Under the pieces are notes generated by a model. The model did no database searches. It saw only the letters and a list, made by a program, of their open reading frames with translations, and was not told the origin of the DNA. DNA of 64,000 nucleotides from an uncultured Planctomycetota bacterium (GTDB lineage Bacteria > Planctomycetota > Planctomycetia > Isosphaerales > Isosphaeraceae). The number at the start of each line of letters is the position of its first letter. The stretch's first letter is position 1. The position numbers and the translations under genes were made by a program. The stretch covers positions 160,001-224,000 of the forward strand of contig CAWJTV010000005.1 in the NCBI GenBank assembly GCA_963845755.1. Direction: 5' to 3'. Below, piece by piece: positions 2 to 45,379 of the stretch.

Positions 2-2074
2 TTGACATATCTGACCGGCCATCCGCAGGAGTGGTTGCTCCTGGTCCTGGCCTTGTCGATCTACTCGATTGTTGGTTTTGGGTCCTGGATTATGAACTTG
101 GAGGTTGTTCGAAGGTGTCTCTGTCGTTCCACTGCCGTGATCCTGATTCCAGCATCCAGAGAGCGGTCACCTTTTCGACAGCTCGCGGGCTGGTTCGCGA
201 TCCTGGCTCTCTCGATCGGCATGGCGGCGGTGGAAGTCGTACCTCAGGTGGCGGTTCGCCCCTGGCTGCGCCGGAATCATGATCCCGCGCTGGAGGCCGG
301 CATTCCTCATCGCTACCACGTGGGCGGCCTGAACCTCTTTCAGTTGGTCAGCCCGACTGCGCTAGGGGGGCCATCCGACTACTTCGGCGACGACAATTAC
401 TGGGAGACAATCTTCTCGATCGGGCTCGTGGCCCTGACGCTCGTGGTGATCGCAGTGGCTCGCCATCCCGATCGTCACCTTGTCCGGGGTTGGCTCATCC
501 TGGCCGGCCTGACCATCGCGTTTGCCGCCGGGAGATCCCTGGGTCTGTATCCGTTGTTTTATTCCTCGATTCCTGGGATGGCCTGGTTCCGCGTGCCGGC
601 CCGTTCCTTATTTCTTGCGAACTTGGCCGCCGCGGTGCTCGCCGGGCTCGGAATCGAGACGCTCCGTGTAAGGATAGCCGACACCGCCTCCTGGCGGCGA
701 TTCGCCATCCGAATCGCGCTGGCGTCGGTCATCCTGGTGAGTCTTCTCATGCTCATCCGGTACGGGCGTGTGCCCAGCCAGGATGCCGGTCCTCGCTCCC
801 ATCGGATCGATCTCACGATCGAATCCTCATCACGTTTGAATTTGCTGTCTGCACCAGCCGTGCCGCCTCCATCACAGCGAACGGCACTTGCATCGGCTCG
901 CGTGCTTCAGGATGGAGGCTTCTGGTTTGCGATGTTGAGCATGGGAACACTGGCCGTCTTGGGATGCCAGCCCTTATGCGACCGCGATCGACAGCATCTC
1001 GGCGGCCTGTTCGGCCTGGTCGCGCTGATCGAGCTGGGCTGGTCGGGATTTGCGCTGATCCCGGTCACGCCGGCGGCGAGGTTTGTGGGTCCGGATCCGA
1101 TCAGTGCAAAGCTCACCGACGATAATCCGAACGTCAACGGTTCCTCGAAGTGTTCCCCTGCCCGCTACCCTCCCGCACGGATCAAGGCGCGCGATTCGTA
1201 CTTCGGCGATCTGCCCGCGGTCGTTCACGGCATCGAGAAGACGAACGTGGACGACGCCTTTCAGCTCGACCATGCTTCGGTTCTCTACGAGACCCTCTAC
1301 CCTATCGCATCACGGGTCCGTCCGATGTCGGAACGGTTGCTGAGCCCTTCGGCCAAGGGCGCCTGGCAACGAATACGCCAGGCGGTCTTCGACCGGCTGA
1401 GCGTCACGCACATCGTCTCGGATCGGGTTGAGCTGGACCCGGGCTGGCCGGTCGTCGATGAGGGCACATGGAACGATTCGCAATTCGTGATCCAGCGTAA
1501 TCCGACAGCCATGCCGCGCGCCTATGTCGTCCCCCGCGCGACGTTCCTCCCCGATCACCCGGGCGTCGTGCTGACTTCTTTCAGCGATCTCGACCCGCAT
1601 GCCTCGGTCGTGATGAGTGCGGACCCACTGGATTCTCTGCCGACCTGGCCTCGTCAGCCGTTCACTCCGGCAGAATGGACCTCAGACGATCCCGACCACC
1701 CTGCCCTGCGAGTGACGACCCTCGCCCCCGGTCTGCTGGTCGTGGCGGATACCTGGATGCCCGGCTGGACGTCGACTGTCGACGGCCACGAGGCCACCGT
1801 TCTGCGCGGCAACCAGTCCCAGCGCGTGATCCCCCTGCCCGGGCCCGGCCGTCACACGATTGTCATGGAATACAAGCCTCCTGGCTGGATCTCCGGTTGT
1901 GTGATTACGGTCCTTAGTTTCATGGGCTGGGTCGTGATCGCGGGATTCCTCGTGAGCCGCGATCGAACAGCTTGCCAGAGCCGGTCTACGCCCCTTCTGC
2001 GCAGGCGACGAGCGTTGAAGCATGGCGTGCTTCATGGACGTTCCATCTCGAACAAGTCAATACTGCGGCAGTAG
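2..2074 (+). CDS. YfhO-family multi-pass membrane protein (putative GT-C glycosyltransferase), 5'-partial
   Basis: 690-aa ORF open at the window edge; many TM segments; FRVPAR motif; YfhO-type C-terminus LVVADTWMPGWTSTVDG...G.HTIVMEYKP. Confidence 0.75.
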   Translation: MTYLTGHPQEWLLLVLALSIYSIVGFGSWIMNLEVVRRCLCRSTAVILIPASRERSPFRQLAGWFAILALSIGMAAVEVVPQVAVRPWLRRNHDPALEAGIPHRYHVGGLNLFQLVSPTALGGPSDYFGDDNYWETIFSIGLVALTLVVIAVARHPDRHLVRGWLILAGLTIAFAAGRSLGLYPLFYSSIPGMAWFRVPARSLFLANLAAAVLAGLGIETLRVRIADTASWRRFAIRIALASVILVSLLMLIRYGRVPSQDAGPRSHRIDLTIESSSRLNLLSAPAVPPPSQRTALASARVLQDGGFWFAMLSMGTLAVLGCQPLCDRDRQHLGGLFGLVALIELGWSGFALIPVTPAARFVGPDPISAKLTDDNPNVNGSSKCSPARYPPARIKARDSYFGDLPAVVHGIEKTNVDDAFQLDHASVLYETLYPIASRVRPMSERLLSPSAKGAWQRIRQAVFDRLSVTHIVSDRVELDPGWPVVDEGTWNDSQFVIQRNPTAMPRAYVVPRATFLPDHPGVVLTSFSDLDPHASVVMSADPLDSLPTWPRQPFTPAEWTSDDPDHPALRVTTLAPGLLVVADTWMPGWTSTVDGHEATVLRGNQSQRVIPLPGPGRHTIVMEYKPPGWISGCVITVLSFMGWVVIAGFLVSRDRTACQSRSTPLLRRRRALKHGVLHGRSISNKSILRQ

Positions 2075-2637
2075 TCGCTCCCGCCGAGGCGGGCGATCGT
2101 CTTGAGCTTGCGGGGATCGACTCGACCGGATGGGTCGAGCACAGCGTCGTCGATGTGGAGGAGCAGGACCTCGCCAATCACGAGGTTGGCCGCGATTGGT
2201 CCGTCTCCAATTGAGATGAGCTGACGCATGCGACATTCCAGGTGGACGGGCGACTCGGCCACGCGCGGTGGGCAGACCTTGATCGATGGCTGGATCGTTA
2301 GCCCAGCAAATTCGGCCTCACTCTGACCACGAGGTAGTTCCTTCGCGGTCGCGTTCATCTGAGTGGCGAGGTCTTCCACAGCCGCGTTCAGGACGAACTC
2401 CGGCACGATCTCCAAGTTGATCAGCGTGTCCTTCTTCGAGCCATCACGTCGCAGCGTGGGGGAGAAGACGACAATCGGCGGATTGGCGCCAAACGCGTTG
2501 AAGAAGCTGAACGGTGCGAGATTCACCCGGCCCTCGTTGTCGATCGTAGTCACCCATGCGATCGGGCGAGGCGTTACCACTCCGACCAACGCCTGGTAGA
2601 CTGTCACGACATCCGTGGAGGCGACATCGATCTGCAT
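2032..2637 (-). CDS. flavin reductase-like FMN-binding protein (DIM6/NTAB family)
   Basis: PRPIAWVTT, NLAPFSFFN, KDTLIN, PPRVAESPVHLEC and IARLGG motifs. Confidence 0.9.
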   Translation of the reverse strand: MQIDVASTDVVTVYQALVGVVTPRPIAWVTTIDNEGRVNLAPFSFFNAFGANPPIVVFSPTLRRDGSKKDTLINLEIVPEFVLNAAVEDLATQMNATAKELPRGQSEAEFAGLTIQPSIKVCPPRVAESPVHLECRMRQLISIGDGPIAANLVIGEVLLLHIDDAVLDPSGRVDPRKLKTIARLGGSDYCRSIDLFEMERP

Positions 2638-3808
2638 CTAATCGATCCAACTCAAAGGGTAGGAGGGGTCGTCGAGTTGCATGGCCTCCTGCGTCAGCCG
2701 GAGCGGACGGACGGTATCAACCATGACGGCCAGCTCGTCGGTTCGCACCAGTTCCCGACTGGCGTCGATGGTGCCGGGGTGTGGCCCGTGAGGGATGCCG
2801 CGGGGATGGAGCGTGATCGACGACGCCTCGATGCCCCGCCGGCTGCCGAACCGCCCACGGACGTAATACAACACCTCATCGGCCTGGACGTTGGAATGGG
2901 CATAGGGGACCTTGATCGCCTCGGGATGCGTATCGAGCATCCGCGGCGCGAAAGTGCAGAGCACGAAGCCCCGTGACTCGAACGTCTGGTGCACGGGAGG
3001 AGGTTGGTGAACCGTGCCGGTGATCGGCTCGAAGTTCTCGGCGTTGAACGTGTAAGGGTAGACCATCCCGTCCCAGCCGACGACATCGAATGGGTGGCTG
3101 GCCAAAGTGTAGTGAGTTAGTCGCCGTCCGTCCTTGATGAGAACGGGCGTCTCTTCCTCCCGGTCAACGACGCCGAGCTCGCGCGGGCCGTGCAAGTCGC
3201 GCTCGCTATAGGGTGCACCCAGTCGAATCTGCCCGTCCGAGTTGAGATATCGGGCCGGGATCGAGATGTTCCCAGCCGCTTCGATGACGAGGAGATCCGG
3301 TTCGGAACTTGAGTCGAACTCGAGCCGATAAGTCGTACATCGAGGGATGACAATATAATCGAGCGCGCGGAACGCCAACGGCCCGAATAGCGTCTGTAAC
3401 GTACCACGACCGGCGTGGACGAAGACAACCTCGTCGGCGTCGGCGTTGCGGAATAACAGGTCCTGCGGCTTCTCGGGGCGACATCGCGCGAGGATCACGT
3501 CATCGTTGCCGAGGAGGGGGACGCGGCCGGTGATCGGGTCGCCGGCGCGGGGGATGGACCCGGTCTTCAGATGATGATGACGCAGCGCGGGCTCCTCGCC
3601 GAGGTCCAAAGCAACGTTACCGGCCGGCTCGAGCCGGAGCACCGCGGGTCGGTGGGCGAAGGTGGTAGACCAAGCTATAGGCCCGCGAAAACCCGGCAAG
3701 CGTCACGACCTCTTCATAGTAGATCCCCTCACTCCGGAAGCCTGGTAACTGAGGATGGGCAATGTGCCGCTTGCGCGGGATCGATCCGAGTCGCAAATAG
3801 GGCGGCAT
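2638..3808 (-). CDS. hmgA: homogentisate 1,2-dioxygenase (one apparent frameshift near 3640)
   Basis: N-terminus MPPYLRLGSIPRKRH...GFSRAYSLVYH (ATG 3808 with SD) joins ORF 2638..3699 containing FRNADADE, HPFDVVGWDG, VPYAHSN, HPRGIPHGPHPG and ELAVMVDT. Confidence 0.9.
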
Positions 3809-3900
3809 GGGACTCTCTCCTTCCAGGTGCTGCCGGTGCGCGTCGGGAAGTTTCGGATCACCCGGTTTTTCCCACACCCACCGCACGCCACCCGTCAACA

Positions 3901-4614
3901 TCAGGGATGCGCGACGACACGATTCCGCAAGGTCCCGAGTCGCTCGATCGTCAGCTCGACAAGATCGCCGGGCTTGAGCCACCCCCCTGCCCGTTCGGGC
4001 GTCAACTCGAGGATGCAGCCCGTGCCGACGGTTCCGGAGCCGATCACGTCGCCGGATCGGAGCGTTGTATCCCGGCTGGCGTGTGCGAGCAACTGGGGCC
4101 AGGTCCAGTACATGGTCCCGGAGTCGCCCGTTGAGAGCAAGTGTCCGTTGACGCTCGCCTTCATTTCCAGGTGGAACCGGCCGTCGCGGTATCGATCGGC
4201 CAACTCGTCGAAAGTCACGAGCTCGGGACCGAGCGAGGTCGCGAAGTCTTTCCCTTTACTGGGGCCAAGGCCGACGGCCATCTCGATGCGCTGAAGGTCG
4301 CGGGCACTCCAGTCGTTCATGATCGTCCAGCCAGCGACGACGTCGAGTGCATGGTCATCGTCCGGAAGGTCTCGGACTTCGCGGCCGATCACGCAGGCCA
4401 ACTCCAGTTCGTAATCCAATGCCTGGCTACCCCGGGGCGCATGAACCTCCGCCTCGTGGCCGATCAGCCCCGCCGGGTTGGAGAAATAGAACACCGGCAC
4501 CTGATACCACTGAGGGACCATATCGAGCCCGCGGTGGCGCCGGCACGTCGCCACATGCTGCTCGAATGCGTAGAAGTCTCGAATGCCCGTAATTGGGGGA
4601 AGTGGTTGTCGCAT
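3901..4614 (-). CDS. fahA: fumarylacetoacetate hydrolase family protein
   Basis: IRDFYAFEQH, PVFYFSN, LDYELE, NDWSARD, KGKDFA and GSGTVGTGC motifs; lies between hppD and hmgA. Confidence 0.85.
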   Translation of the reverse strand: MRQPLPPITGIRDFYAFEQHVATCRRHRGLDMVPQWYQVPVFYFSNPAGLIGHEAEVHAPRGSQALDYELELACVIGREVRDLPDDDHALDVVAGWTIMNDWSARDLQRIEMAVGLGPSKGKDFATSLGPELVTFDELADRYRDGRFHLEMKASVNGHLLSTGDSGTMYWTWPQLLAHASRDTTLRSGDVIGSGTVGTGCILELTPERAGGWLKPGDLVELTIERLGTLRNRVVAHP

Positions 4615-4679
4615 GGGTGCGCCCCAGTATTCAGCGTTCAGTATTTCGAGTCACTTTGCAGACTGAACACCGAAAACTG

Positions 4680-5786
4680 TTACAGCGTTCCCCGCCGTGC
4701 CTGCTCGCGCTCGATGGCCTCGAATAGCGCCTTGAAGTTTCCTTTGCCGAAGCTCTTCGCTCCGCGGCGCTGGATGATCTCGAAGAACAGGGTCGGCCGG
4801 TCTTCGACCGGTTTGGTGAAGATCTGGAGCAAATAGCCCTCGTCATCGCGATCCACGAGGATGCCGAGGTCGGCGAGCTCTCTCAAGTCCTCGCGGATCG
4901 TGCCGACACGTTCCGGCAGCAACTCATAGTACGCGGGGGGTACCCTGAGGAACGAGACGTCGTTGGCGGCCATGGCGCGGACGCTAGCGATGATGTCTCC
5001 AGTCGCCAGCGCGATGTGCTGCACGCCAGGTCCGCCGTAGTAGTCGAGGAACTCCTCGATCTGGGACCGGCGGCGGCCGTGTGCGGGCTCGTTGATCGGG
5101 AACTTGATCCGACCCCGGCCGTCGGCGACGACCTTCGACATCAGGGCCGAGTAGTCGGTGGAGATGTCTTTATCGTCGAAGCTCACGAGCAGCGAGAAAC
5201 CCATGACCTTGCTGTAGTAATCGACCCAGTCCCCCATCCTGCCTTCTTCCACGTTTGCGACGACGTGGTCGATCGCCTTGAGCCCGACCGGGTGGAACGT
5301 GCGAGGGCTGTAACGGTCCGGGTCGAGTGGCTGGAAACCAGGTGCGAAGACGCCGTGATACCGCGAGCGGTCCATCAGCGTGTGCGTGGTGTCTCCATAG
5401 GCATGGATCTCGGCAAATTCATAGGCACCGAACTCGTCTTCGATCGTTTGGGGCGGCGTGGCGGCCTTGGCCCCGCGCGCCACGGCGGCCTCGAATGCCG
5501 CCGGCACATCGTTGACTTCTAGGGCGATCGACTGTACTCCGTCACCGTGATCGATCAGACGAGAGGCGTCGGGATGATCGGCACGCAACGGCGAGGCTAA
5601 TACAAATGTAATATGCCCCTGGCGGAGCACGTAACACGCCTCATGCCGCACGCCGGTCTCGAGCCCCGAATATCCGATGACGTCGAACCCGAACGCGTTC
5701 CTGTAGAAGTACGCGGATTGACGCGCATTGCCCACGAACATTCGTACGTGATCGATACACTTCAATGTCAGAGCATCGGTACTCAT
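4680..5786 (-). CDS. hppD: 4-hydroxyphenylpyruvate dioxygenase
   Basis: IDHVVANV, FPINEP, SQIEEFL, GVQHIAL, LLQIFTKP, FFEIIQRRG and FGKGNFKALFEAIE motifs. Confidence 0.97.
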   Translation of the reverse strand: MSTDALTLKCIDHVRMFVGNARQSAYFYRNAFGFDVIGYSGLETGVRHEACYVLRQGHITFVLASPLRADHPDASRLIDHGDGVQSIALEVNDVPAAFEAAVARGAKAATPPQTIEDEFGAYEFAEIHAYGDTTHTLMDRSRYHGVFAPGFQPLDPDRYSPRTFHPVGLKAIDHVVANVEEGRMGDWVDYYSKVMGFSLLVSFDDKDISTDYSALMSKVVADGRGRIKFPINEPAHGRRRSQIEEFLDYYGGPGVQHIALATGDIIASVRAMAANDVSFLRVPPAYYELLPERVGTIREDLRELADLGILVDRDDEGYLLQIFTKPVEDRPTLFFEIIQRRGAKSFGKGNFKALFEAIEREQARRGTL

Positions 5787-5920
5787 GGAAGGGGCCTCCC
5801 GACGCATGTCCTGTGGGCTTCACTCACCGAGTAAGAGCGTGGTCTTCCAGCGTCGCCTGGATGACCCCCGCCAGCACTCGCAGCAAGTCGGTGAGTCGCC
5901 CTCATTGTACGATCGATTCG

Positions 5921-6835
5921 TCAACCGACCACACCGTGGATCCGGTCGTCTTCCAGGCCTTCCCAGAACGTCGCGATTGTGTCGAGGACCTCCTGGGCAC
6001 CTTGGAAAAACTTGGCGTCGTCGAAGCGAGGATCGAAGAAGACGGATTCAAGCTCTTCCATGGTGTGGCCGGCATGTTGGGCTTCGACTCGGTTGTGCCA
6101 GGTGAAGAATGCGACTTTCAACCCGCGGAGCCGCGTCGCCTTGATGTGCAGCAGGCCATCTTCCAGCTCCTGCCAGAAACCGGCGGCGGCCCAGTTCTCC
6201 ACCGCGAAGCTGGCTCCCTCGGCGATCCGGTCGTCCTCGCTGCCGTAGAGGCGCTGGAGCTCGTCGCAGAAGTGAAGCGTATAGTCCCGACCATGGCGCC
6301 GCTTGCCCAGGTCGTCGAAACCCAGCCCGAGTGCCTCTCCGACGGCCAGCAGCCACTCGAAGTGCGCGGCTCGAAACCGGAAGAGGCCACCGTCCACCGT
6401 CCCTTCGGTACTGACCAGGTCCGGATCACCCTCACGGTCCCTCGAGTCCTCATCGTCAGCCGATCGTGCAGCACCCGAGGCACCCTCGGTCCGTCGATAG
6501 ATCACGCCTAGCTCGTTCATCAGGATCTCTTTGGCCGCCCGCGCCTGCTGGAGTGTCGGAGCATTGACCACACGCAAGAGCGCAGCAACCAGGAACTGAT
6601 TTGAAAAGACGGAGAACTGGCGTACAAAATGGGCCAGCTCCGCGTCTGTCGCCTCTCCCTCGCGGAACCATCGGGTGTAGGAGTTGTCCGTGATGATGCG
6701 GTGGTGGAGCAGGTCTCGTTCGACGTGATCGAGGAACTCACGGAAATCGTCAACTTGTTCCTTGGTCAATCCACCCTGATTGAGCCGCTGTTCGATGCGA
6801 GGCGAAACCAAGTCGTGATGCATTGCCGTCGTCAT
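5921..6835 (-). CDS. heme-oxygenase-like diiron (HDO; PqqC/CADD/TenA-fold) protein, function unknown
   Basis: Helical protein with HDO-like ligand spacing: ILMNELG, AAHFEW, GASFAVENW, FFTWHNRVEAQH, C-terminal TFWEGL. Confidence 0.7.
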   Translation of the reverse strand: MTTAMHHDLVSPRIEQRLNQGGLTKEQVDDFREFLDHVERDLLHHRIITDNSYTRWFREGEATDAELAHFVRQFSVFSNQFLVAALLRVVNAPTLQQARAAKEILMNELGVIYRRTEGASGAARSADDEDSRDREGDPDLVSTEGTVDGGLFRFRAAHFEWLLAVGEALGLGFDDLGKRRHGRDYTLHFCDELQRLYGSEDDRIAEGASFAVENWAAAGFWQELEDGLLHIKATRLRGLKVAFFTWHNRVEAQHAGHTMEELESVFFDPRFDDAKFFQGAQEVLDTIATFWEGLEDDRIHGVVG

Positions 6836-7073
6836 GAGACATCCCCTGGAGTTGTGAGTTGGTATGGGGGACTTGTCTCTCAATTCTAAGAGGCTGGCGC
6901 GATCGGGGTAGACCCATTCCGCAAAGATACTGTGATGTTACGAAGTCATTGGCTGCAAGCATCAATGGTAGCCTGATTCACTGCGCGTTCGCCTTTCAAG
7001 GCGATCCGGACCGTTTGACGTGTATCGTATCCGTCTCTGATCTCGGCTGGAGTCTGGTTTCGGAACGTCAAGT

Positions 7074-8235
7074 TCAAAGCGCGAAGTCTCCGGTCAGTTC
7101 GCCGATGGGCAATGGCTGCACGGATCGGTTGGGACCGCAAAGCGTCCAAACGCCACCGATGAAGAAAGAATAATCACGGCGGGGCAAGAATGGTGAGCCG
7201 TGCCGCGAGCCGAGGATCATGAAACTGAATACAAAGGCGGCCATGACGGCCTGCACCAGTAGGATCAGTAGGAAGCCGACAGTGAAAGTTGCCCACCCCG
7301 GCATGATCAGATCGGTCGCGAGTCGCACGATGACTGCAGCCAGAATCCCCCCCATGGTCAACAGGGCCAGAACCGCCGAGATGACCAAGAGCCTGACGCC
7401 GACGACGTCGCTATATACCGAGATCGCGCTTAAACCGTGCGTGACAAGAGCGACGAAATTCATGGACGACTCACCGCAAAGGCGCGTGCGAGCGGCTAGT
7501 CGGGATCAGGCAATGGGGCTGGCGGGATCGGATGACCGCAGCCGCATAGTGGTTCCAGAGCTCGGCCACGACGACCAGGCTGGAGAGACGCCGGCGCGGG
7601 ATCGCGCTGAAGTTGCCGACCCGAACCTTCTGGCCGGTGAGGAAGTAGTGGAGTAGCTTGTACAGGGCATAAAAGATCTGGAAGAAGAGGGATTCTGACC
7701 GACGCGTCCGCTCGGCGAAGACGATCCTGGTCTGACCGGACCCCTCGAGTTGATTCAACAGCCGGGGGACATCAGCCGGATCATCCTCGCCATCACCGTC
7801 CATGATCACGACGGCATCGGATCGGAGACAGTCCTCGATATATGCCAGGCCAATCGCGATCGCCCTCTGGTGCCCCAGGTTGCGCCTCAGGCGGAGGACA
7901 TCCACCCGCCGCACGGCGTGGAACGTCGGTTGCGCCGCAGGCGTTTCCGATTCGATGGTCGAACCATCGTCCACGACGAGCACCTCGGCCTCAAGACCTC
8001 GATCGGCCAGGGCCGAATCTAGCCGGGGCATCAGTTGCGCCAGCGAGGCCCAATCGTTGAAAACCGGGATCAGGATGATGATCGACCCCGCTTCGCTGCG
8101 GAGCCAACTCGGTGAGTGCACTCGTTCCGTTTCGTCCCCGAGCAGGGGAGGCATCTCCTCGCGCTCGGCTCCCTCGTGCGGGCCGGCCTCTGTCTCAGGA
8201 TGATCCATCCTGGCGATCCTTCGGCGACGTTCCAT
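7074..8235 (-). CDS. GT2 polyprenol-phosphate glycosyltransferase (GtrB/DPM1-like), frameshift near 7490
   Basis: ILIPVFND, VVDDGS, RNLGHQRAI and MDGDGEDDP motifs; two C-terminal TM helices in ORF 7074..7463; GGGAGG SD before ATG 8235. Confidence 0.85.
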
Positions 8236-27230: not shown

Positions 27231-28095
27231 GTGTCCGAATCGTCCGCCGCGCAGAGCGGCCTGGCGCCCTGGTCCGTCGGCGTCTGCAGTTGGAGCCTCC
27301 AGGTCAAGAGCGTCGCGGAGTTGAAAGGGTTCCTCGATCAGCTCGGGATCAACGTCGTGCAGATCGCGTGCGGCGACCCGCACCACGCGAGCTGGGAGGA
27401 AGGCGATGCTCTGCCGGCGGCCGCGCGGGCTTCGGGCATCGCAATGACCGGCGCCATGCTGGGCTTCCCCGGCGAGGACTACACAACGCCCCAGACCATC
27501 AAGGAGACCGGCGGATTCGGCAACCCGGCGACGCGCGTCGAGCGGATCGAGCGACTCCAGTGGGCACTCGACCGCACGATTGCCCTCGGCCTGAACGACC
27601 TCACGCTCCACGCCGGATTCCTGCCCGAGCACGACGACCCGGACCGCAAGGCGATGCTCGACACACTCGCCAAGGCGGCCCAGCTCGCCGCCGACAAAGG
27701 AATCACGCTCGCATTCGAGACTGGTCAGGAGACCGCCGATTTGCTGCGCCAGACGCTCGACGACCTGAAGTCGCCGAATCTCAAGGTCAACTTCGACCCG
27801 GCGAACATGATCCTCTACGACATGGGGGACCCGATCCGTGCCGTCGAGATCCTCGGTCCGGACATTCGATCCGTGCATTTGAAGGACGGGCGGCGGACCC
27901 GTGTCCGTGGTCAGTGGGGAGACGAAGTGCCCCTGGGTGAAGGGGAAGTCGGGTATCCCGAGGTTCCTTCAGGCATTGAAGAGCGTCGGCTACACGGGGC
28001 CCCTGGTGATCGAGCGCGAAGTCGGCGACCAGGCCGGTCGACTGCGGGATGTAGCCGTGGGGCTGGCGCGGGTCCGCGAATGGCTGGGCCGTTGA
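27231..28095 (+). CDS. sugar phosphate isomerase/epimerase (xylose isomerase-like TIM barrel), frameshift near 27950
   Basis: FETGQE, VNFDPANM, SVHLKD, GYTGPLVIERE motifs; GGAGG SD before GTG. Confidence 0.88.
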
Positions 28096-28166
28096 TTCCT
28101 GGTCCTCGGACCTGAGCCGAACCATCCTCGATTGCTTCACTCTCGGGTTGCGCAACAGATACCAAG

Positions 28167-28215
28167 CCGAAGCGTCAGCGAGGGGAATGTCGTCGGACAC
28201 TCGTTGACGCCTCGG
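28167..28215. repeat. REP-like inverted repeat, 16-bp arms
   Basis: ccgaagcgtcagcgag ... ctcgttgacgcctcgg, between convergent genes. Confidence 0.7.
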
Positions 28216-28468
28216 GTGAGTCGGGGTGTCCTTCATGTCGAGCTGTGCGCTATCCCTGCGTGAAGCGCTCTAACCCTTCCGCCTGACCGGTCCGGTCTCC
28301 ACGCTTTCCTGGATAATCCGCTCGCGCCAGAAGGCGGGGTCAGCGTTTGAGGAACGCTGCTGATTTGACGCCCAGCACTTCTCGTGGTCCCTGATGCACG
28401 TTCGCCTCAAGGGTCTGATGTCGATCGAACGATCGCCGGCAGCCGTCAACTCCGATCGAACGTCAGGC

Positions 28469-28909
28469 TTACTGGACTTGCGAAGTCCTTGGTCGATTCT
28501 TGGTAGGCTGAAGTTCCATGGTTCGTGTTGCCAGGCCGGCGGCGTGGGCCGTTGCGTAATCCGGATTCGACGAAGTTCTTCGCCTGGCGCGTTTGGGGCG
28601 ACCACGCGCGACCAGGGTGATTTCCTGCTCCGGTTCGACCGTGAACTCCTCTTCATAGATCATGAGTCGCTCTCGATGCAAGCGGAGGACATGCTTGCCG
28701 GCCTCCAGATCGCAGATCAACAACTTCTCGAAGGATTTGTACGGGTACTCCTGATTGTCGATAGTCAGGACGAGATCCTGTTGAGGGAGGAACACGATCG
28801 CTTTGCCATGCGACGCACTGCCGATGTGAGTGACGTGCCAGACGATCAGACAAAGCACGCAGAAGACGATCGCACGTTGCGCCAGGTTGGCGAGTAACCT
28901 CATAATCAT
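28469..28909 (-). CDS. hypothetical membrane-anchored protein with a small beta-rich (PEGA-like) domain
   Basis: GGGAG SD; N-terminal TM; LTIDNQ...LEAGKHVLRL...EEEFTVEP pattern. Confidence 0.6.
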   Translation of the reverse strand: MIMRLLANLAQRAIVFCVLCLIVWHVTHIGSASHGKAIVFLPQQDLVLTIDNQEYPYKSFEKLLICDLEAGKHVLRLHRERLMIYEEEFTVEPEQEITLVARGRPKRARRRTSSNPDYATAHAAGLATRTMELQPTKNRPRTSQVQ

Positions 28910-29370
28910 TTCGATCTCCCCCATGGAATCGGGCGGTGCGAGCGTCGCTCTGGCGGGACACCGTCCGAGATCAGTCGCCACGAACTGCCATCCACTTCGG
29001 CTCAAACGTGAGTTTGAGAGACCGGATGGACAGAGGGAAAAGCTCAGGTAGGATTGGAGGAAGGCGACGGGGAATGCAGAAAAGTCCGATCGGCTGGAAC
29101 ATCCCGTCTCCAAGGCTCCTGGTGATTATATGCCTGGATACACCACCGGGTTCAAGGCCGAGACACCCCGAATGACTTCGGATTCGCCGATCTCCTTGTG
29201 GCAACTGGATTTCGCGTCGGGCAATTCCTGGGGAACGGCGATGGTGACGACGACTTGACACCCGAGTCAATCCGCGTCTTCCCCTTGACTGAACCCTTCG
29301 TGGGTCGGGAGAATCCAGATTAGAGCGCTTAACTTTTGCATTGCGCACGCCCTGAGGCGCTGCGAATTCA

Positions 29371-29461
29371 CCCCCCCGAACCCCCCCTTGGCAAGGGGGG
29401 GACAGGAAACGGGCTTTTCCCGATCAATATCCCTCCCTTGCGAAGGGGGGGTTCGGGGGGG
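29371..29461. repeat. REP-like inverted repeat doublet, 31-bp arms
   Basis: cccccccgaacccccccttggcaaggggggg ... ccctcccttgcgaagggggggttcggggggg; 2 mismatches. Confidence 0.9.
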
Positions 29462-29578
29462 TTCTTCGGGAGCAGGCTTCACGTGTGGGCCACCCAACTG
29501 TGAGGCTCTAGGGACGCCTTCCTCATAGCAACGCTTGATCGTCTCGACGAATCCGACCCGACGAAGGACTGCCTGCCG

Positions 29579-30845
<1,267 letters not shown>

Positions 30846-36569: not shown

Positions 36570-38654
36570 TCACACGATCGCCCAGAAGGGGCGCCCATCG
36601 GGGGTTCGCTTCGGGTGAAGTCGAATGCGCGATCGGGGATCGGTGTTCTGCCCCAGCAGGTGATACATGTCGTAGAGGACGCCGTGAGCCTCGGCGAAGT
36701 AACCGTGCCCGAGGATGGAGAGGTCCAACCCGGTGACCTCGACCGTATCGATGCCATCGACGACCGTGACCGGCGGGGCATACCCCACGCGATCGAACTG
36801 GTGAATCCAGTGCGAGGCTTCCAGGGCGCGGTCGCGAGCGGAGACATAGAGCGTTGTCCGCTCCGAAATCTTGGGATAGAGGGTTGCCAGGTCGCGGAAA
36901 AGGCCGACGTCGAGATCGGGAGCTGCGAGGAACATCTGGCCGAAGCGAATTCCCGCCGTTGAGGCTGCCTGGGCTGTGATCCGCTGGATCGCCCGCAATA
37001 GGCCGCGGTTGCCCATGCTGTGGGCGATCACGTGAAGGCGGGCCGCGCCGCTGTCGGTCGCGAGGTGGACGAGGAAATCAGTGATCGCGGCCTCGCTGGC
37101 CTCGATGCTGGCTTCATCGGAAGCATAGCCTTTGAGTGCGCCCCGCGACGGCCAACTGAAGAACGACATCGCGCCCGGGACTTTCAGGTCGAAGCCGATC
37201 TGGGCCGCGCGGATGGCTGCCTCGTCGAACGAGACGTTGTATCCGTGCAGATAGACAAGGACCTGCGGCTCATCAGCATCGTCCGGGGTCAGCTCGCGCC
37301 GGATGGCCTTCCAGAATGCGTCCCTGGCGATCTCATCCCGCTGGACGATGCGGAGCCGATCATCTTTCCAGATGAGCCAGCGCTTCCACCAGGCGGAGCC
37401 GACCGAACCGAACTGGTGCGACTTGGGGATCGCGACCAGACATTTCCCGTAATGAACGACGTTCTGACTCTCGCGATCGCCGGAATACCCCGCGGACGTA
37501 TCGGACGAATCGCGATAACTCCGATTGGTACCGTACCAGACCGGGTAGACGCGAGGGAGACTCGCATCGGCGCTGTATTTCGCGACGCTGGTTCCTCCGG
37601 CCTCAAGCCCTTTCGACGACCCGCCGCCACCCTTCTTGGGACGATGGCCACCCATCCCAACGAACTCCAAGCCCTCCGAGTCAATCTCACGGGTGATCTC
37701 ATTCCGATCGCCCAGGATGATGATGTTGCCGGAGACATCTCCGCCGGCGGCGAATGACCGTTCCCCGATGGCCTGGACGATCCGCCCGATGGTCACATGG
37801 GCTTGCTTTTCGTAGGCCGACCACCCACCCGCCGGGAGTCCCTTACCACCGCGGAGGAGCGCCACGGGGAAGTCCGTCGTGGCGTTGTAATCGAAGTGCG
37901 GCTCTTGCTCGGCGTTGCAAAGTTTCCGAGCACTCTCGGGCACGGCCTTGCCCAGGTAATTCATCAGGTCGGAGAGTTTGACGGTCGTTTCGCCCGGCCG
38001 ATTGTTGGCACCTTGCAGGGCCTCGATGAGGTGGTAGGTGTAGACGCTCATCGTCCCATCGGGCCGCACCCACGACTTTTGTTGGCCACCCGATGAGGTG
38101 AAGACGGCTCGCCCCGCGCCCTGTTTGAGCACATCAACCACCGCCTTGGGTGGGGGCGCCGGGACAAGATCCTTGGGGAACTTGATGGCGGCTTGACCCC
38201 CTTTGGCCGTGGCCATACCCTCGGCGTGGCAGCAATCCAGGATTGCCAGCAGCCGCTCTGCCTTGATCCGGCGCAGTAGCTTGATGAACTCCGGTGCCGG
38301 AATGGCCGAGCGGGGAACGTCGAGCGGATCGGCGTCATGAGGGATCAGGAAGTAGCGGCTGGTCCCCTTATTGAGCCAGCCATGGCCGGAAAAGTAGACG
38401 ACCGCGGTCGCGTGCGGGTCGGCGGCGACTTGCTGGGCCAGCCAGTCCAGTCCCTCAAGGATCGCGTCGCGAGTGGCCTGTCGATCGTGAAGCAGCCGCA
38501 CATGGTCTTCGGGATAGGCGCAGAGGCTCTGGTCGATGAGCACGGCCTGGATCGCCTGGGCGTCCTTCACGGTCACTGGGAGTGACCACTTATCGTACTG
38601 GGCCTGCCCGACGCCGATGAGCAGGGCGTATCCTTGATCGAAGGTCTCGGCCAT
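36570..38654 (-). CDS. caspase-like (peptidase C14) domain + amyloid-like linker motif + DUF900-type alpha/beta hydrolase
   Basis: Intact ORF; YALLIGV, VVYFSGHG (His), ILDCCH (Cys); then VWYGTNR, VYLHGYN, FSWPS, IAHSMG (Ser), LAAPD and GHGYF. Confidence 0.92.
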   Translation of the reverse strand: MAETFDQGYALLIGVGQAQYDKWSLPVTVKDAQAIQAVLIDQSLCAYPEDHVRLLHDRQATRDAILEGLDWLAQQVAADPHATAVVYFSGHGWLNKGTSRYFLIPHDADPLDVPRSAIPAPEFIKLLRRIKAERLLAILDCCHAEGMATAKGGQAAIKFPKDLVPAPPPKAVVDVLKQGAGRAVFTSSGGQQKSWVRPDGTMSVYTYHLIEALQGANNRPGETTVKLSDLMNYLGKAVPESARKLCNAEQEPHFDYNATTDFPVALLRGGKGLPAGGWSAYEKQAHVTIGRIVQAIGERSFAAGGDVSGNIIILGDRNEITREIDSEGLEFVGMGGHRPKKGGGGSSKGLEAGGTSVAKYSADASLPRVYPVWYGTNRSYRDSSDTSAGYSGDRESQNVVHYGKCLVAIPKSHQFGSVGSAWWKRWLIWKDDRLRIVQRDEIARDAFWKAIRRELTPDDADEPQVLVYLHGYNVSFDEAAIRAAQIGFDLKVPGAMSFFSWPSRGALKGYASDEASIEASEAAITDFLVHLATDSGAARLHVIAHSMGNRGLLRAIQRITAQAASTAGIRFGQMFLAAPDLDVGLFRDLATLYPKISERTTLYVSARDRALEASHWIHQFDRVGYAPPVTVVDGIDTVEVTGLDLSILGHGYFAEAHGVLYDMYHLLGQNTDPRSRIRLHPKRTPDGRPFWAIV
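37701..37772 (-). other. putative amyloid signalling motif in the effector (AIGERSFAAGGDVSGNIIILGDRN)
   Basis: Sits between the caspase and hydrolase domains; 13/24 identical, ungapped, to 42137..42208. Confidence 0.75.
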
Positions 38655-38693: not shown

Positions 38694-41600
38694 TCACGGC
38701 CACCAGCGGCCGACTTCTTCGATTGCAGTACAGGTCTCGGCGATCGCTTCTGAACCGCCCAGGCGCGGGATCAGCGGCGCGAGCGACGCGAGGTCGGAAA
38801 GGAGGTCGCTGCGCGATCGCGTCGCGAGAAGTCGGAGCGTTTCTGACCAAAGTAGGGACAGCCGTGTGTGTGGCAGCGCCGCCAGCCGGGGTGCCACTGC
38901 CGTCAGGGCAGCAGCCCGGGACTCGTTGTGCTGAATATCCCGCGCCACCGCCGACGCCTCATCCACTCGACCCAGCGCCGCTAGTGTACGAGCCAGCACC
39001 CAGTCGTCGCCGATCCGCCTCGCGTTTGCCAGTGCGTCATCGGTCTGGCCCAACTCCGCCAGGCGGGGTAACAGCGCTGCCAGGGCGTGTACGCGGCCTA
39101 ACTCGTCGCCGGTGCTCCGTGCTATCGCCATCGCCGCCTCCACTTGACTCAGCTCCGTCAGGCGCGGCGCCACCGACGCCAAGGCGGCGACCCGGGCCCA
39201 CGGGTCGCCTGACTCTCGTGCGATCCCTAGCGCCTCATCCACTTCACCGATCGTAGCCAGGCCCTGGCCCGAGCCCACTCCCGCTCGATCCCCCGCGCCA
39301 GCAACAGTGCCTCCTCAAGCCGACCCACATCCGCCAATCGAGGCGCCAACTCCGCGAGAGCGAAGGCCCGGGCAGACTCATCGGCGACCCCATGCGCCAG
39401 ACTCAACGCTTGCTCGAACCGGCCCGCATCCGCCAGCCGGGCGCCAACTCTGCGAGGGCGAAAGCCCGGGCCGACTCGTCGCTGATCCCCCGGGCCAATG
39501 CCAACGCGTCATCGACCTGACCGAGCTCCCCAAGGGCGCGGGCCCGGGCCGACTCGTCGCCGATCCTCCGTGCCATCACGAGCGCATCATTGGTCCGACC
39601 CAACCTCGCCAGGTGGGGTGCAAACTTCGCCAGGACATTGTCGCGGGTTCGTTCGTCACCGATCCCCCGGACCACCGTGAGCGCCTCCTTCACCCGATCC
39701 GCATCCGCCAGGCGGGGCCAATGCTCCCAGGTCCCGGGCACGCTGCCACTCGTTTTTGATCTCCCGCACTGCTCGTATCGCTTCATCGACTCGGCCTGCG
39801 TCCGCCAGCCGGGCGCCAGGTTCGCTCGTGCAGCAGCCCGAGCCTGCACGGGTTCGATCTCCATCACTACTCCAATGCCCTATCCAACTGTCCGAGTTCC
39901 GCCAGGCGAGGCATCAGCGCCACAAGCGGCAAGGATTTGAGCGCCCATCGTCCTCGATCGTCGAGTGCCACCGCGAGCGACCGCCTGACCCGATCCGCAT
40001 CCGGCAGAAGGCGCCATCTTCACCAGGGCGAGGGCCCGGGACCCCTCGTTCGGATCTCCCGGGCCACCGCCAGCGCCTCATCCGCCTGACCAATCGCCGC
40101 CAGGCGCAGGCCCGAGCCCACTCAGGCCCGATTCCGGCGTAAGCGCCATCGCGACATCGACCCCGACCAGTGCCGCGAGTCGTGGCGCCAGCGCCGCCAG
40201 GGCACCGGCCCGGCACCCTTCGTCATCGATTCGCCGCGCCGCCGCCAGCGCCCGGTTCGACATGGGCGGGCTCCGCCAAGTGAGGAGCCATCTCCTCAAT
40301 AGCGATGGCCCGGGTGCTTTCGGCGGCGATTCCGCCTGCCACCGCCAGCCGCCTCATCCACGTGACCGAGCTTTGCCAAGGCGACGGCCCGCATCCTGCT
40401 CACCCCCGATTCTCCGCGCCGCCGCCAACGCCTTTTGCAGCACCGTCCGCCTCTCGTGGTGATCGTAGATGGGGGGTGATCCCGATGATGGCATCGACTC
40501 CTTCTTCCGGTGGCAAAGACCGGCGTAGGCAAGGCCCTGCGAAGCGGACCAGATCCCTTTCTCAACAAAGGCGGCGAGCAGGGCCGGAGGGATCTTCCGA
40601 GCCAGGCTATTGAGGGACGTGGACATCAAGGCATAACGAATCTCCAGTCCGATGCATGCCTTGTGCTGGCTCGGCTCGGCGCCCGGCCGATCGACGACTT
40701 GCACCAGTCGTGCGGCCCGATCAAGTCGTTCATGTACCCCGACGCGGGCTGGTCCAGACGTGCTCGCGGGACTGTGTACCAGACATTCTCAGTACGGACC
40801 GAACCACAGTCCTCGGCCCCGTCGACCCGCCTCTCTAGTCGGAGCAAGCGGTGGAGGTCGTCGAAGCGGCCGGCCCGTTCGAGGTGCTCGGCCATATGCC
40901 GCAGGCCGTAGCCATCGAGATCCACTCTTCTGCGGGGTCGAACAAGGCGGGAAGGCCCGCGTCCAGGCCACCCCAGGCGAGACAGGTAGAGGGTCGCGAC
41001 CCGATCGTGCGTCGCGCCGAGGTGGACCATGTCTTCCTCGTCCAAGAAATCGACAAACGACTGGTGAACGACGCGCCATCGCTTGCGGTCGGCCTCTGGC
41101 ATCATGGCTCAGGAATCGTCGCCATCGTCTCAGCGCCGCGTTCCTCGATCTCTGCGGGCGAGCGGTTGACCCACGAAGGCCAGCCAGGATGCCGACACCG
41201 CCTCGCGGGCCGCGGCCAGGAATGCGATCACGGGTTTATAGAGACTCTCCCACTCGGCCCAGCCCTCCTGGCCCCGCACCTGCTCCATCTGCTTCCAGAA
41301 CTGCTGATAGTAGCCCCGCAGGCCGAGCGGGAGTGACTCGAGGTCGAGCGGGTCGAAACCCGGCTCGCGCGCGGCGATGTCGGCCAGGACGTAGTCGAGA
41401 TACTTGAAATTGCCCTCGCTCTTGTCCTTCAGGAACGCAACGAATTGCTCGATCGAGATCGGCGGTTTCGCTGCCTCCCGCGCCTGGAGGATCTCAGGCT
41501 GGTCTGCCTCCTGGTTGAGATAGGCGACGAGATCCTCCTGCTGGGCGGCGTCGTCGGAGGTGATGAGGTAGTCCTCGTCGGCCGTGCCCGCATCGGTCGT

Positions 41601-42754
41601 GAGAGAGATCTCGCCGGGGCGATGGGTCAGGAGCATGTAGACGCCGCGCAGGGAGCCGAGTCGGGAGCAGCAGCGTGTTGCGGCCCGGCTCGAGGGGATC
41701 GGCCTCATCGAGGGCGTCAACGACGATCCAGACCGGCCCCTCTGCCTTGGCGGCGGCCTCGGAGAGCACCTTGCCCAGGAACGACGAGTCCTCGCCCGCG
41801 CGGGCCGGCAGGTGGTCGTGGGCCAGGCCGAAGCGGGCAATCAATTCAACGGCGAGGTGGTTGAGGCACTGGTCGGGACGGGTCAGGCCGCCGACTGGCA
41901 ATGGTGAAGAAGGCGGGCGCTTTCAGCCGCTTGGATGCTTCCGCGGCGATCGCCGTCTTGCCCAGGCCGGCGTCGGCCACGACCCGGAAATAACCGCAGG
42001 GATGCCGCTTGGCGAAGGCGTCCAGGCGTCGGAAAAGTTCAGCCCGGCCGACGAATCGCTCTGACACCTTCTTGATCAGGTCATCGAAGTCGATGGCATA
42101 GTCTTTGAGCGAAGGGTAGAGTTTGACGATGGTCTGGTAGACGTCGCCGATCTGAAAGACGTTATCCCGAGCATCGCCGCCGATCGCGAAAGCTCGTTCC
42201 CCGATGGCTTTCGCCACGTGGGCTGGAGAAGGAAGTTCTTCGATCTCGGTCCGAGCCATTTCCTCGGTCGCCCCCCCAGTGTCGTGCTCGGAAAGCCACT
42301 GGCCCAGATCGGTTGCGACCTTGGCTTGCAGATCATCGGGATCGCAAAAACGCGTGGCGTTGCCGCTCTGGATCAGCTCGGACGCAAGGCCGGATCGCGC
42401 TGCCGATGACTTGGACTTTCCCCTCCCGCGCTTGGCGGCCGTCTTTGGCTCATCCTTGACATAGATCAGACAGCGTAACTCGTGCTGATTCGCGCGGCGG
42501 TACTCCGGTTCGAAATGGATTGCGGACGCCTGACCGCCAAGGAAGCCGATGTAGAGCTGGCCCCGGGACGGTTCGAACGGCCTTGTGCCCGTCCCCTCAT
42601 CGTCGTCGAAGGCGACCCACTCCAATCCGGGGAAAGTCGTCTCGCGGAGCCGCATCAGGGTTCGCTCGACCGCCGCGCGCTCCGGCGCCAGTTTGGACGG
42701 CACGGAGCCGAGCACGATTCGGATGAGTCTCGGTCGGTCCGTTCCGGCTTCCAT
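38694..42754 (-). CDS. NLR-like STAND ATPase: degenerate DUF4062-like domain, amyloid-like motif, NACHT-like NTPase, helical/WH domain, TPR-like repeats; many frameshifts
   Basis: Walker A VVADAGLGKT (~41954-41977); Walker B IVVDALDE (~41705-41730); SEGNFKYL; LPLGLRGYY; VHQSFVDFL; YGLRHMAEHL; repeats ARRIGDESARARAL; C-terminus EVGRWWP. Confidence 0.8.
42137..42208 (-). other. putative amyloid signalling motif in the NLR (AIGERAFAIGGDARDNVFQIGDVY)
   Basis: Just N-terminal to the NTPase region; matches 37701..37772 including an identical 14-nt stretch gccatcggggaacg. Confidence 0.75.
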
Positions 42755-42946
42755 CGGTCTCCTTCGGACTCGCGGTGCGTCGCGGCCCTCTCGACCATCA
42801 CATGCGCAATCCGATTATCCAGTCTCAATCGACCTGCGGCAACGACCAAGTCGAGAGCAGCTCCGAGGTGTCTTCGGTTGACGAGGGCCACATCGTCAAT
42901 GGGAGCGCTGCGCGGAAACCTTGCCGGGAAGTGGCCGAGACAGATG

Positions 42947-43119
42947 AGCCCGGGGCAACGCCCCGGAACCGCGTCGCCGACCCCAAGCCCAGCCCTGAAA
43001 GGGCGAGACAAGCCGGGCCGGCGGCCTTCATCTGTGCCGCCCTTTCAGGGCCTCCTCGGAGGACGACCCTGGTTCCCGGGGCGTTGCCCCGGGCTAGTAT
43101 GTTGCGGCCCCTTCGGGGC
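42947..43119. repeat. composite REP/MITE-like element with nested inverted repeats
   Basis: Outer arms agcccggggcaacgccccggaacc / ggttcccggggcgttgccccgggct; inner arms gccctgaaagggcg / cgccctttcagggc; terminal hairpin gccccttcggggc. Confidence 0.85.
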
Positions 43120-43148
43120 GGGGAGAACGATTCTCCGATCTGTGTGTC

Positions 43149-43310
43149 TCAGTTATCACTTTCCCCCTTGCGTGGACCTATTTGGGCCGGAAGAAGTTCA
43201 GGAGCATCTCGTTCCAAGTTGGGATCGAGGTAGCGGAGGGCGTCGCCGGAATGGACCTCCGGCACGAACCACTTGATCACGATGCTGGAATCGACGACAA
43301 GCCGGCTCAC
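43149..43310 (-). pseudogene. vapC: truncated VapC/PIN toxin (53 codons)
   Basis: Hand translation from GTG 43310: VSRLVVDSSIVIKWFVPEVHSGDALRYLDPNLERDAPELLPAQIG..., matching the PIN N-terminus VVDAS..IKW...E; not in the ORF track. Confidence 0.7.
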
Positions 43311-43706
43311 CGGAGGCGATCCTCGGCCACCAGGAGAGCGCTGTCGCTTTGTGGCCGGCCCGCGAGGCTATGAAGGCTGGCCTCGGCGCGCTCGCGGGTT
43401 GCGATTGCCTCGCCGCGCCGCCTCGTCACGTCGTGCCGGTGCCGGAACCCATTCGAGGTTCGTCCGTTCGCAATTCAGACGGTTGCCGTCTTTGAATCGG
43501 ACGACATGGCCCGGTGGCCGTGGGCCGACCAACGCCTCCAGGACCAGCTCGGCCAGTAGCCGCGTCTGTGGTCGTCCTTGATCATGATAGAGGGAGATGA
43601 TCTTGTTGCCCTCGACGTCTACGATGGCCGGAACCTGAACCCACTCGTCCCGGCGATCAGAATCGTGTCCCGGTGGATCGGTCCTGTGCTGAGGCTGGGT
43701 GGACAT
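43307..43706 (-). CDS. putative antitoxin: degenerate HNH_3-like domain + VapB/FitA-like C-terminal tail (frameshift near 43410)
   Basis: LVLEALVGPRPPGHVVRFKDGNRLNCERTNLEWV, then in the shifted frame LAGRPQSDSALLVAEDRLR*; stop overlaps the vapC start (GTGA). Confidence 0.6.
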
Positions 43707-43890
43707 GCGAATGAACTCCGTACGTGGGGCAATCGTGCCACGCACCATGATGACGCCGGATCGGTCGGCTTGAAAGGCTGCCTCCAGGGGAAACGTCATG
43801 TCGCTTTCCCATCGCCTCCGGGTCAACAACCTATTAGAATCGTGGGGAAATGGTGCGAGAGCTAGGGCGATCCTCGGGGGGGCGACGCCG

Positions 43891-44462
43891 ATGAGCGAAG
43901 TGAGTGGACTCCTGGAGGCGATCGGCCGGGGTGAGCCGCAACGGGCGCGCGAGCTGTTGCCCATCGTTTATGAGGAGCTGCGAAAGCTCGCCGAGGCCAG
44001 GCTCGCCCGTGAGCCGACGGACAGACCCTCCAGGCGACCGCGCTGGTCCACGAGGCCTTCCTCCGGCTGGTCGGCGACGGGGACGGCCCGGCCTGGGAGA
44101 ATCGCGGCCACTTCTTCGCCGCCGCAGCCGAGGCGATGCGGCGCATCCTCGTCGAGAAGGCCCGGCATAAGCGTCGAAGACGCCATGGCGGCGGGCTCCA
44201 ACGTGTCAACCTCGACCAGGTCGCTCTCGGCGACGACGACGCGGCCGGCGATCTGCTGGCACTCCACGAGGCCCTCGATCAGCTCGCCGCCGAGGAGCCG
44301 GTCGCCGCCGAGGTCGTCAAGCTCCGCTATTTCGCCGGCCTGACCACCGAGCAGGCTGCCTCGGCCCTCGACATATCCCTGCGCACTGCCAACCGCCACT
44401 GGGCCTACGCCCGCGCCTGGCTCCACCAGCGTCTCAACTCTGCGGGCGACACGCCGGCTTGA
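43891..44462 (+). CDS. ECF sigma factor, planctomycete kinase-associated type; frameshift near 44020
   Basis: MSEVSGLL..., LLPIVYEELRKLA, TLQATALVHEAFLRL, HFFAAAAEAMRRILV, VVKLRYFAGL, WAYARAWL. Confidence 0.93.
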
Positions 44463-44808: not shown

Positions 44809-45379
44809 GTGATGTTCATCTTCCCGATCTCCCGTCGCCAGACTGACCGTCCCCACGTCCGACTACCTCGGGCCCGCCGCCCACTCGTCGAGAACCTCGA
44901 AGGCCGGCGACTCCTCTCGGGCATCCAGGGCAACCACATCGGTGTGATGAGTGTCGCGCCGGCGATCGTGGGCCAACACATCGGCACCGCGGCCATCCAG
45001 GGCAACCACATCGGCACCCCGGCGATCGTGGGCCAACACATCGGCAGAGCGCACCGAGGTCGTCCAGGGCAAGCACATCGGCACGGACGTCGCCCCGGCC
45101 ATCCTGGGCAACCACATCGGCACCCCGGCGATCGTGGGCCAACACATCGGCACCGCGGCCATCCAGGGCAACCACATCGGCACCCCGGCGATCGTGGGCC
45201 AACACATCGGCATGGGCGTCACCCAGGTCGTCCAGCGCAAGCACGTCGGCGAGGATGTCGTCCCGGCCGTCCAGGCGCCCCCCGCTCCTGGTAACTTCTC
45301 AATGACCGTAGGAAACCACCTCGGCAGGGGCGTCACCCCGGCCATCGTGGGCGACGACATCGGCCATAATCTCATGTGA
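44809..45379 (+). CDS. small planctomycete LExRxLLS-motif protein made of GxHIG repeats; frameshift near 45050
   Basis: AGGAGA SD; RRPLVENLEGRRLLS, then 12 units such as IQGNHIG and IVGQHIG. Confidence 0.8.
44921..45212. repeat. 30-bp coding tandem repeats (two alternating unit types)
   Basis: ggcaccccggcgatcgtgggccaacacatc and ggcaccgcggccatccagggcaaccacatc; block ~44958-45045 recurs at ~45125-45212. Confidence 0.9.

Follow-up and report, generated by a model that had tools for sequence, protein, structure and literature searches.

We examined a 64,000-nucleotide stretch of the genome of an uncultured planctomycete (family Isosphaeraceae; contig CAWJTV010000005.1, positions 160,001 to 224,000 of the forward strand), hereafter the window. 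On its minus strand lies a gene that joins a caspase-like protease, a short motif of the bacterial amyloid-signalling type and an alpha/beta hydrolase in one chain, and directly upstream of it lies the gene of a NOD-like receptor (NLR). The fusion gene is a single unbroken open reading frame (ORF), as the initial annotation of this DNA had it, running from an ATG at 38654 to a stop at 36570; GAGG is found a few bases 5' of the ATG, a start site that relatives share. The gene and its parts are:

36570..38654, minus strand: caspase-BASS6-DUF900 fusion gene (protein P0001, 694 residues), from the ORF and full-length relatives
37872..38633, minus strand: metacaspase-like Peptidase_C14 domain, residues 8-261, by Pfam; catalytic dyad H91/C142 and predicted S1-pocket residues D31 and D140
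37698..37778, minus strand: effector-side BASS6-type motif, residues 293-319, by profile search and by-eye comparison with cluster C09
37563..37697, minus strand: predicted disordered linker, residues 320-364 (predicted local distance difference test, pLDDT, <50), with basic-Gly sites K341/G342 and K348/G349
37602..37619, minus strand: conserved island, residues 346-351, by conservation profile; predicted cleavage site K348/G349
36573..37562, minus strand: DUF900 alpha/beta hydrolase, residues ~365-694, by Pfam; S546, H650 and D608 (or D580)

Domain search and structure prediction, the checks proposed with the initial annotation, both point to two enzymes. Peptidase_C14 matches residues 8-261 (E 3.8e-19, 69.7 bits vs. 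a Pfam cut-off of 21.4) and DUF900 matches residues 451-660 (E 1.7e-44, 152.5 bits vs. 20.5), while an AlphaFold model of the full protein, built from 15 sequences, shows a pair of folded domains with a low-confidence or disordered stretch (298-366) between them. The short motifs from which two complete catalytic sets had been read are where they were said to be, i.e., SGHG at residues 89-92, DCCH at 140-143, AHSMG at 544-548 and GHGYF at 649-653, with the linker sequence GGHRPKKGGGGSSKG at 335-349, and their key residues are invariant in alignments. That the fusion arose by chimeric assembly, named at the outset as a danger to the annotation, or by chance read-through has a vanishingly small probability and was ruled out. 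Although indel errors exist in the assembly, six proteins from other assemblies (P0002-P0007; NCBI, ENA and JGI), taken from the best 120 of 1,178 matches listed, align to 100% of the fusion length at 70-79% identity with identical junctions, and the gene is intact in the related genome G046. Because of these end-to-end relatives and the intact gene in G046, the caspase and the DUF900 hydrolase constitute a genuine single-chain fusion with both catalytic sets intact. In another related genome, G069, the gene is split into two pieces.

Strong matches occur in 5 of 121 genomes of the same family, a close match to caspase, motif and linker was absent from 400 other genomes of the phylum (E 1e-60), and a metagenome scan of 55 loci yielded no additional full-length fusion. 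A phmmer search of the whole protein against the PDB returned 0 matches. PADLOC models (2023 library) gave only a generic caspase match (E 1.6e-17) and a weak STAND_TPR match.

Within the caspase domain, the dyad residues H91 and C142 as well as D31 and D140 are invariant in all 29 aligned caspase sequences, and the two aspartates align with Asp residues of Arabidopsis metacaspase-4. The domain model resembles MALT1 and metacaspases, i.e., a caspase-hemoglobinase fold (Foldseek E ~1e-8); the caspase_w_EACC1 profile (NF047832) scored 98.4 bits, below its curated cut-off of 140. We take D31 and D140 to be the acidic S1 pocket that selects Arg or Lys, and from this pair the enzyme is predicted to cut after these residues, a specificity that had been suggested earlier and has now gained sequence support. 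Caspase and motif together form a cassette present in 45 of 58 caspases of the clade, a count biased by the lower length limit of 381 residues in the first search. In each of these 45 the motif is internal; its internal position had been correctly annotated, but it is not peculiar to the fusion protein. The domains that follow the cassette vary (TIR/SEFIR, KTSC, TCAD2, CHAT, NB-ARC-TPR), and nothing follows it at loci L028, L029, L038-L041 and L043. Two longer single chains, P0010 and P0012, run caspase-motif-EAD7-CHAT-DUF900.

The earlier assignment of an alpha/beta hydrolase is borne out by the DUF900 match, by an invariant Ser-acid-His set and by a predicted lipase- or esterase-like fold. 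All 69 aligned hydrolases have S546, H650, D608 and D580, with either D608 or D580 as the putative catalytic acid. A separate model of this domain (pLDDT 89.9) matches lipase and esterase folds with a best Z of 13.1 (root-mean-square deviation, rmsd, 2.7; 166 aligned residues); 4QNN is among the tied matches (Z 11.9, rmsd 4.3, 233 aligned). At 15 of 80 DUF900 genome loci, a hydrolase that is encoded separately and extended at its N-terminus directly follows a large CHAT-TPR protein, most of these with a match to STAND (signal transduction ATPases that have numerous domains), so that caspase-fold proteases are a recurrent partner of this hydrolase clade.

The motif between the two enzymes was searched for with a profile trained on relatives, from which the fusion protein itself and every NLR sequence were left out. 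Only 2 of 275,982 six-frame fragments of the 14.3-Mb genome reached 14 bits or more: the fusion ORF scored 38.7 bits and its NLR neighbour 23.8 bits (E 4e-4). Against reversed fragments the highest score was 16.2 bits. Because the profile matches only these two neighbours genome-wide, the effector motif is more than a chance resemblance. At the DNA level, 49 of 84 bases are identical between the NLR-side and effector-side copies, and both encode a Phe that is present in 1 of 55 protein motifs. Cognate motif pairs outscore shuffled pairings (p 0.006; 12 pairs, which are not independent because of kinship and include three whose adjacency is inferred only indirectly). A by-eye comparison places the motif with the entries of C09 in the training set for BASS (PMC8086366, supplement 1), a cluster that the archive README equates with BASS6 (PMC8086366), and by this match it belongs to the published bacterial amyloid-signalling family BASS6. 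Identity with BASS3/RHIM was rejected, as the G-(I/V)-Q-(I/V)-G core of BASS3 (PMC8086366, PMC7885112) is absent from residues 293-319. The amyloid-signalling reading of the initial annotation thus finds support in the sequence; what it had overlooked is the adjacent NLR, whose matching motif could trigger clustering.

38694..42754, minus strand: NLR gene, by six-frame reading; collinear from start to stop with the intact 1353-residue P0122
42308..42754, minus strand: DUF4062-like domain of the NLR; resembles the P0124 DUF4062 domain (37% identity over 139 residues, E 3e-21)
42134..42214, minus strand: NLR-side BASS6-type motif, just 5' of the NTPase part, by profile search
41954-41977, minus strand: Walker A of the NLR NTPase, by six-frame translation
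41704-41730, minus strand: Walker B of the NLR NTPase, by six-frame translation, in a frame different from that of Walker A

The NLR stop lies 39 bp 5' of the fusion ATG. As in P0122, a DUF4062-like N-terminus is followed by the motif, a NACHT/AAA_16-like NTPase and TPR-like repeats. Pfam gave weak NACHT, AAA_16 and NPHP3_N matches for P0122, a match below cut-off between the window NLR and AAA_16 (E 0.0024), and none for the DUF4062-like part of the NLR. A scan for promoters and terminators gave nothing clearly above chance, with a lone sigma-70-like site (42842-42814) ahead of the NLR.

This gene order is conserved. An NLR lies directly upstream of the caspase gene in three related genomes (G046, G069 and G071), with the motif present on both the NLR and the caspase side in G069 and G071. 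The textbook order, caspase-motif followed by motif-NLR, occurs in G012, L038-L041 and L043 (and in L029), and in L040 the NLR carries a DUF4062 domain ahead of its motif, where the window NLR has a DUF4062-like one. The intact NLRs P0122, P0123 and P0128 match the fusions P0003, P0007 and P0005, respectively, in the length of their longest contig, which indicates indirectly that they probably neighbour them. Motif and gene order together make it likely that NLR and effector are coupled through the motif.

The linker had been described as flexible and rich in Gly and Lys. It is indeed predicted to be disordered, and its basic-Gly site is conserved: across the six close relatives, the island at residues 346-351 has 86% identity vs. 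44% and 38% in its flanks, S-S-K-G-L (346-350) is conserved, and K340, K348 and L350 are invariant among the six. The glycine run, however, varies among close relatives and was rejected as a functional feature. In a wider comparison of 199 DUF900 proteins grouped into 152 linker clusters (P0008 and P0014, both frameshifted and lacking an anchor, were left out), K/R-G occurs 6-30 residues ahead of the hydrolase in 8 of the 11 clusters with a fused caspase, in 6 of the 13 with a fused CHAT domain and in 25 of the remaining 128. The difference between protease-fused and other clusters is significant (p 2e-4), with the qualification that three linker patterns were tried per test, on the clusters and on both versions of a genome-locus test, and that the simplest, K/R-G, was significant for the clusters only. 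K-G-hydrophobic is found in 13 of 19 caspase fusions, distant caspase-DUF900 fusions included. When the caspase domain was modelled in complex with linker plus hydrolase, the score was 0.00 twice with the controls unfolded, and the outcome was used neither way. Self-cleavage within the linker, put forward with the initial annotation, is the best-supported reading of these patterns, which support rather than establish it.

We propose that the NLR would oligomerise on an invader signal sensed by its TPR repeats and that its motif would seed the effector motif into a predicted amyloid assembly. Clustering via the motif would activate the caspase; the protease would then cleave the linker behind Lys348 (K348/G349) and possibly also at K341/G342, and the freed hydrolase, predicted to be membrane-damaging, would kill the cell. 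We assign this mechanism as a whole a probability of slightly less than one half (about 0.48), and its parts differ in strength. A role in defence by cell death is probable, and the motif rather likely takes an amyloid form. Activation of the caspase by clustering, with cleavage of the linker, has somewhat better than even odds, whereas we put forward only tentatively that the cut activates a lipolytic, toxic hydrolase. In animal inflammasomes and the RHIM necrosome, a sensor nucleates a polymer, proximity activates a protease and a latent killer is cut; the likeness is one of analogy only, as neither a death-fold domain nor, in the motif, the RHIM/BASS3 core G-x-Q-x-G occurs here. In its boldest form, the proposal would make the two genes a bacterial inflammasome, in which a BASS6 amyloid running through the middle of the effector aligns the caspases, the DUF900 phospholipase of each chain is freed after Lys348 and the membrane is destroyed; the hydrolase clade would then comprise widespread protease-licensed death enzymes, served also in trans by CHAT-STAND-TPR proteins in many phyla. 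This extended form we regard as speculative and rather doubtful.

Both halves of such a design have been published. BASS effector/NLR pairs with CHAT or hydrolase effectors have been described (Dyrka et al., 10.1101/2020.01.06.895854). In BASS6 pairs (Dyrka et al.; PMC8086366), as here, a collinear NLR next to the effector carries the same motif on the N-terminal side of its NTPase. The effector of those pairs is a Bell domain with a C-terminal motif, whereas here it consists of a C14 caspase and DUF900 with an internal motif 376 residues from the end, the NLR lies upstream, and a DUF4062-like domain precedes the NLR motif. The host is a planctomycete, a word absent from the main text of 10.1101/2020.01.06.895854. 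Bab/Agp of family BASS11, where amyloid signalling triggers antiphage cell death (10.1101/2024.11.07.622273), is the sole functional proof of the amyloid sensor-effector principle in bacteria that we found. It resembles the present pair in an amyloid motif common to adjacent sensor and effector, and differs in motif family, in its TPR-GreA/B-PIN sensor, in its membrane-targeting Bell-like effector and in having no protease step.

For the second half, a caspase cut at Arg-Gly renders an alpha/beta hydrolase lethal in LcCaspase-LcHydrolase (Evans et al., PMC12642450), and the pairing of caspases with alpha/beta hydrolases had been noted earlier (PMC7159879, PMC8195603). LcCaspase-LcHydrolase is like the fusion in its caspase-like protease and alpha/beta hydrolase effector, its basic-Gly motif and its coupling to a STAND sensor. 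LcHydrolase (296 residues), compared by eye, is without the motifs invariant in the DUF900 clade of the fusion, and the word amyloid has 0 occurrences in the main text of PMC12642450. A 2024 review lists the function of DUF900 as unknown (PMC11878206). Cinquedea, a bactericidal archaeal phospholipase A with 4QNN as its closest structure, has homologues of which 69% are DUF900 (10.64898/2026.06.10.730825); it shares the Pfam family (PF05990) and the Ser-Asp-His set with the fusion hydrolase and, unlike it, is secreted, archaeal and stand-alone.

Searches of the open-access literature turned up no account of a single chain that unites caspase, BASS motif and hydrolase. Work in fungi and E. coli has shown that amyloid signalling opens pore-forming effectors, and work in bacteria that caspases license hydrolase toxins; of an amyloid that switches on a protease to free an enzyme of its own chain, we found no case in the literature. 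Two genes here hold sensor, polymer, protease and killer, with one-residue handles in the motif (a proline substitution), Cys142, Lys348 and Ser546. The system would offer a first test of BASS6 and of a function for the large DUF900 family, which recurs beside caspase-fold proteases.

Several observations weigh against the proposed mechanism. The sensor gene of the window is frameshifted, with at least eight frame changes in 4 kb vs. one in 7.0 kb of nine orthologues elsewhere in the genome. The NLR of G046 lacks its first 537 residues and lies beside a transposase-like frame, and P0011 has lost most of its caspase. Such observations could mean that the system is decaying in this genome, the NLR being a true pseudogene and the intact fusion an orphan that is silent or otherwise triggered. 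However, trpB and a neighbouring sugar-isomerase-like gene (27231-30845, plus strand) carry one frameshift each relative to a near-complete genome, making two of the four housekeeping genes compared in the window, and this is a sign of residual indel errors in the contig. The NLRs of G069 and G071 are likewise frameshifted, while short-contig relatives (P0122, P0123, P0128) are intact, and the window NLR keeps its full length, 57-79% identity in its N-terminal part and a motif with a private residue common to its partner. The frameshifts may thus represent assembly error or decay. We give decay, which would be compatible with the proposed mechanism for the family at large, a slight chance.

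At the motif step, amyloid formation has been reported for BASS1, BASS3 and BASS11, and no such report was found for BASS6 in the accessible literature; only six of the 12 cognate motif pairs rank first or second, the other six merely 4th to 11th. The motif could instead dock without forming amyloid, as a paired beta-strand or a small beta-solenoid comparable to an effector-associated domain, and each NLR subunit would thereby hold one fusion protein, activated by the NLR ring and not by a fibril. Two large folded domains flank the motif and may hinder stacking, and in some relatives the motif runs into an EAD10-like segment (weak Pfam matches). Docking is nevertheless given a small probability: family, length, composition and paired gene context fit BASS motifs, the motif region is predicted to be disordered in the monomer, and all BASS families put to the test in the published experiments formed fibrils (10.1101/2020.01.06.895854, 10.1101/2024.11.07.622273).

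At the cleavage step, a bacterial caspase-like protease with a putative cut at Asp is on record (PMC12642450), and in the two-gene LcCaspase-LcHydrolase system two Arg-Gly cuts fall inside the hydrolase, whereas in the single chain described here the predicted cut precedes it. The genome-locus test of K/R-G was not significant (11 of 20 vs. 11 of 32, p 0.16; in an earlier version 9 of 17 vs. 12 of 40, p 0.14); among its 80 loci, 13 are without an anchor, and 13 short-flank and two distant-protease loci stand outside the 2x2 table. A looser pattern, K/R followed by G, S or A, separated the loci (19 of 20 vs. 17 of 32, p 0.002) and was chosen post hoc. On the hydrolase tree, K-G-hydrophobic occupies only three of the seven places of caspase fusions, and the approximately unbiased test does not reject one shared origin for the two main fusion groups (p-AU 0.39). 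By the same value, separate origins for planctomycete-type and cyanobacterial-type fusions are not shown.

As to the killing step, fold matches of the hydrolase are tied among lipases, esterases and thioesterases and leave its substrate unnamed. The hydrolase is also optional, being missing after the caspase in G071, where the caspase stops just past the motif with no hydrolase nearby, and in G012; conversely, P0013 has the linker and the hydrolase in a chain that is without a caspase. The main rival to our proposal builds on such partial forms: caspase and hydrolase would be two independent effectors on one tether, clustered by the NLR via the motif, the caspase cutting other cell proteins and the hydrolase being turned on uncut by clustering or membrane proximity. 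Caspase and motif alone constitute the complete gene in G071, G012, L038-L041 and L043, the domains after the cassette are interchangeable, and P0013 dispenses with the caspase. Moreover, an effector-less caspase protects against phage (PMC12642450), and BASS motifs occur directly with hydrolase effectors (10.1101/2020.01.06.895854). Two independent effectors would leave unexplained why the K-G island is conserved when the rest of the linker varies, and why the hydrolase clade is found with caspase-fold proteases time and again, both in cis and in trans. We consider this rival unlikely.

In the relative P0013, an NLR-type DUF4062-like N-terminus leads straight into linker and hydrolase, an arrangement that a deletion between the two motif copies could have produced. 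At L165:6384-9680 of Pseudanabaena biceps, a transposase-like frame lies between the caspase gene and a DUF900 frame, and the hydrolase part begins just ahead of a K-G-I site. The nearest sisters of the fusion hydrolase in the tree (P0021, P0022 and P0024; support 93) include type VI secretion ImpA-N fusions.

In the trans pairs, a CHAT-(STAND)-TPR protein of 1,100-1,500 residues precedes an N-terminally extended DUF900 hydrolase, usually with an Arg/Lys plus small-residue site just ahead of the domain. They are found at L110, L114, L118, L119, L123, L124, L127, L133, L134, L137, L149, L154, L155, L156 and L157 (each at ~400-8000), in Pseudomonas, Acidobacteriota, Verrucomicrobiota, Planctomycetota, cyanobacteria and Thiodictyon, and cultured Pseudomonas carry the pair (L124, L133). 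P0144 and P0227 unite CHAT-STAND-TPR-DUF900 in one chain. From this arrangement the pair is a candidate protease-licensed defence system.

Upstream of the NLR, the window contains GC-rich palindromic repeats (42940-43125), by eye of the repetitive extragenic palindromic (REP) type. The frame directly upstream of the NLR (43185-43964, minus strand) is HNH_3 endonuclease-like (E 5e-9); it is followed by an antitoxin-like frame and a cut-off PIN-domain start, both by eye and with no Pfam match. Further on (44809-45379, plus strand) lies a frameshifted gene for a planctomycete-type secreted protein with a weak match to the planctomycete-extracellular motif, whose ~8 copies of a 10-residue G-(N/Q/K)-H-I-G repeat could form a beta-solenoid or amyloid.

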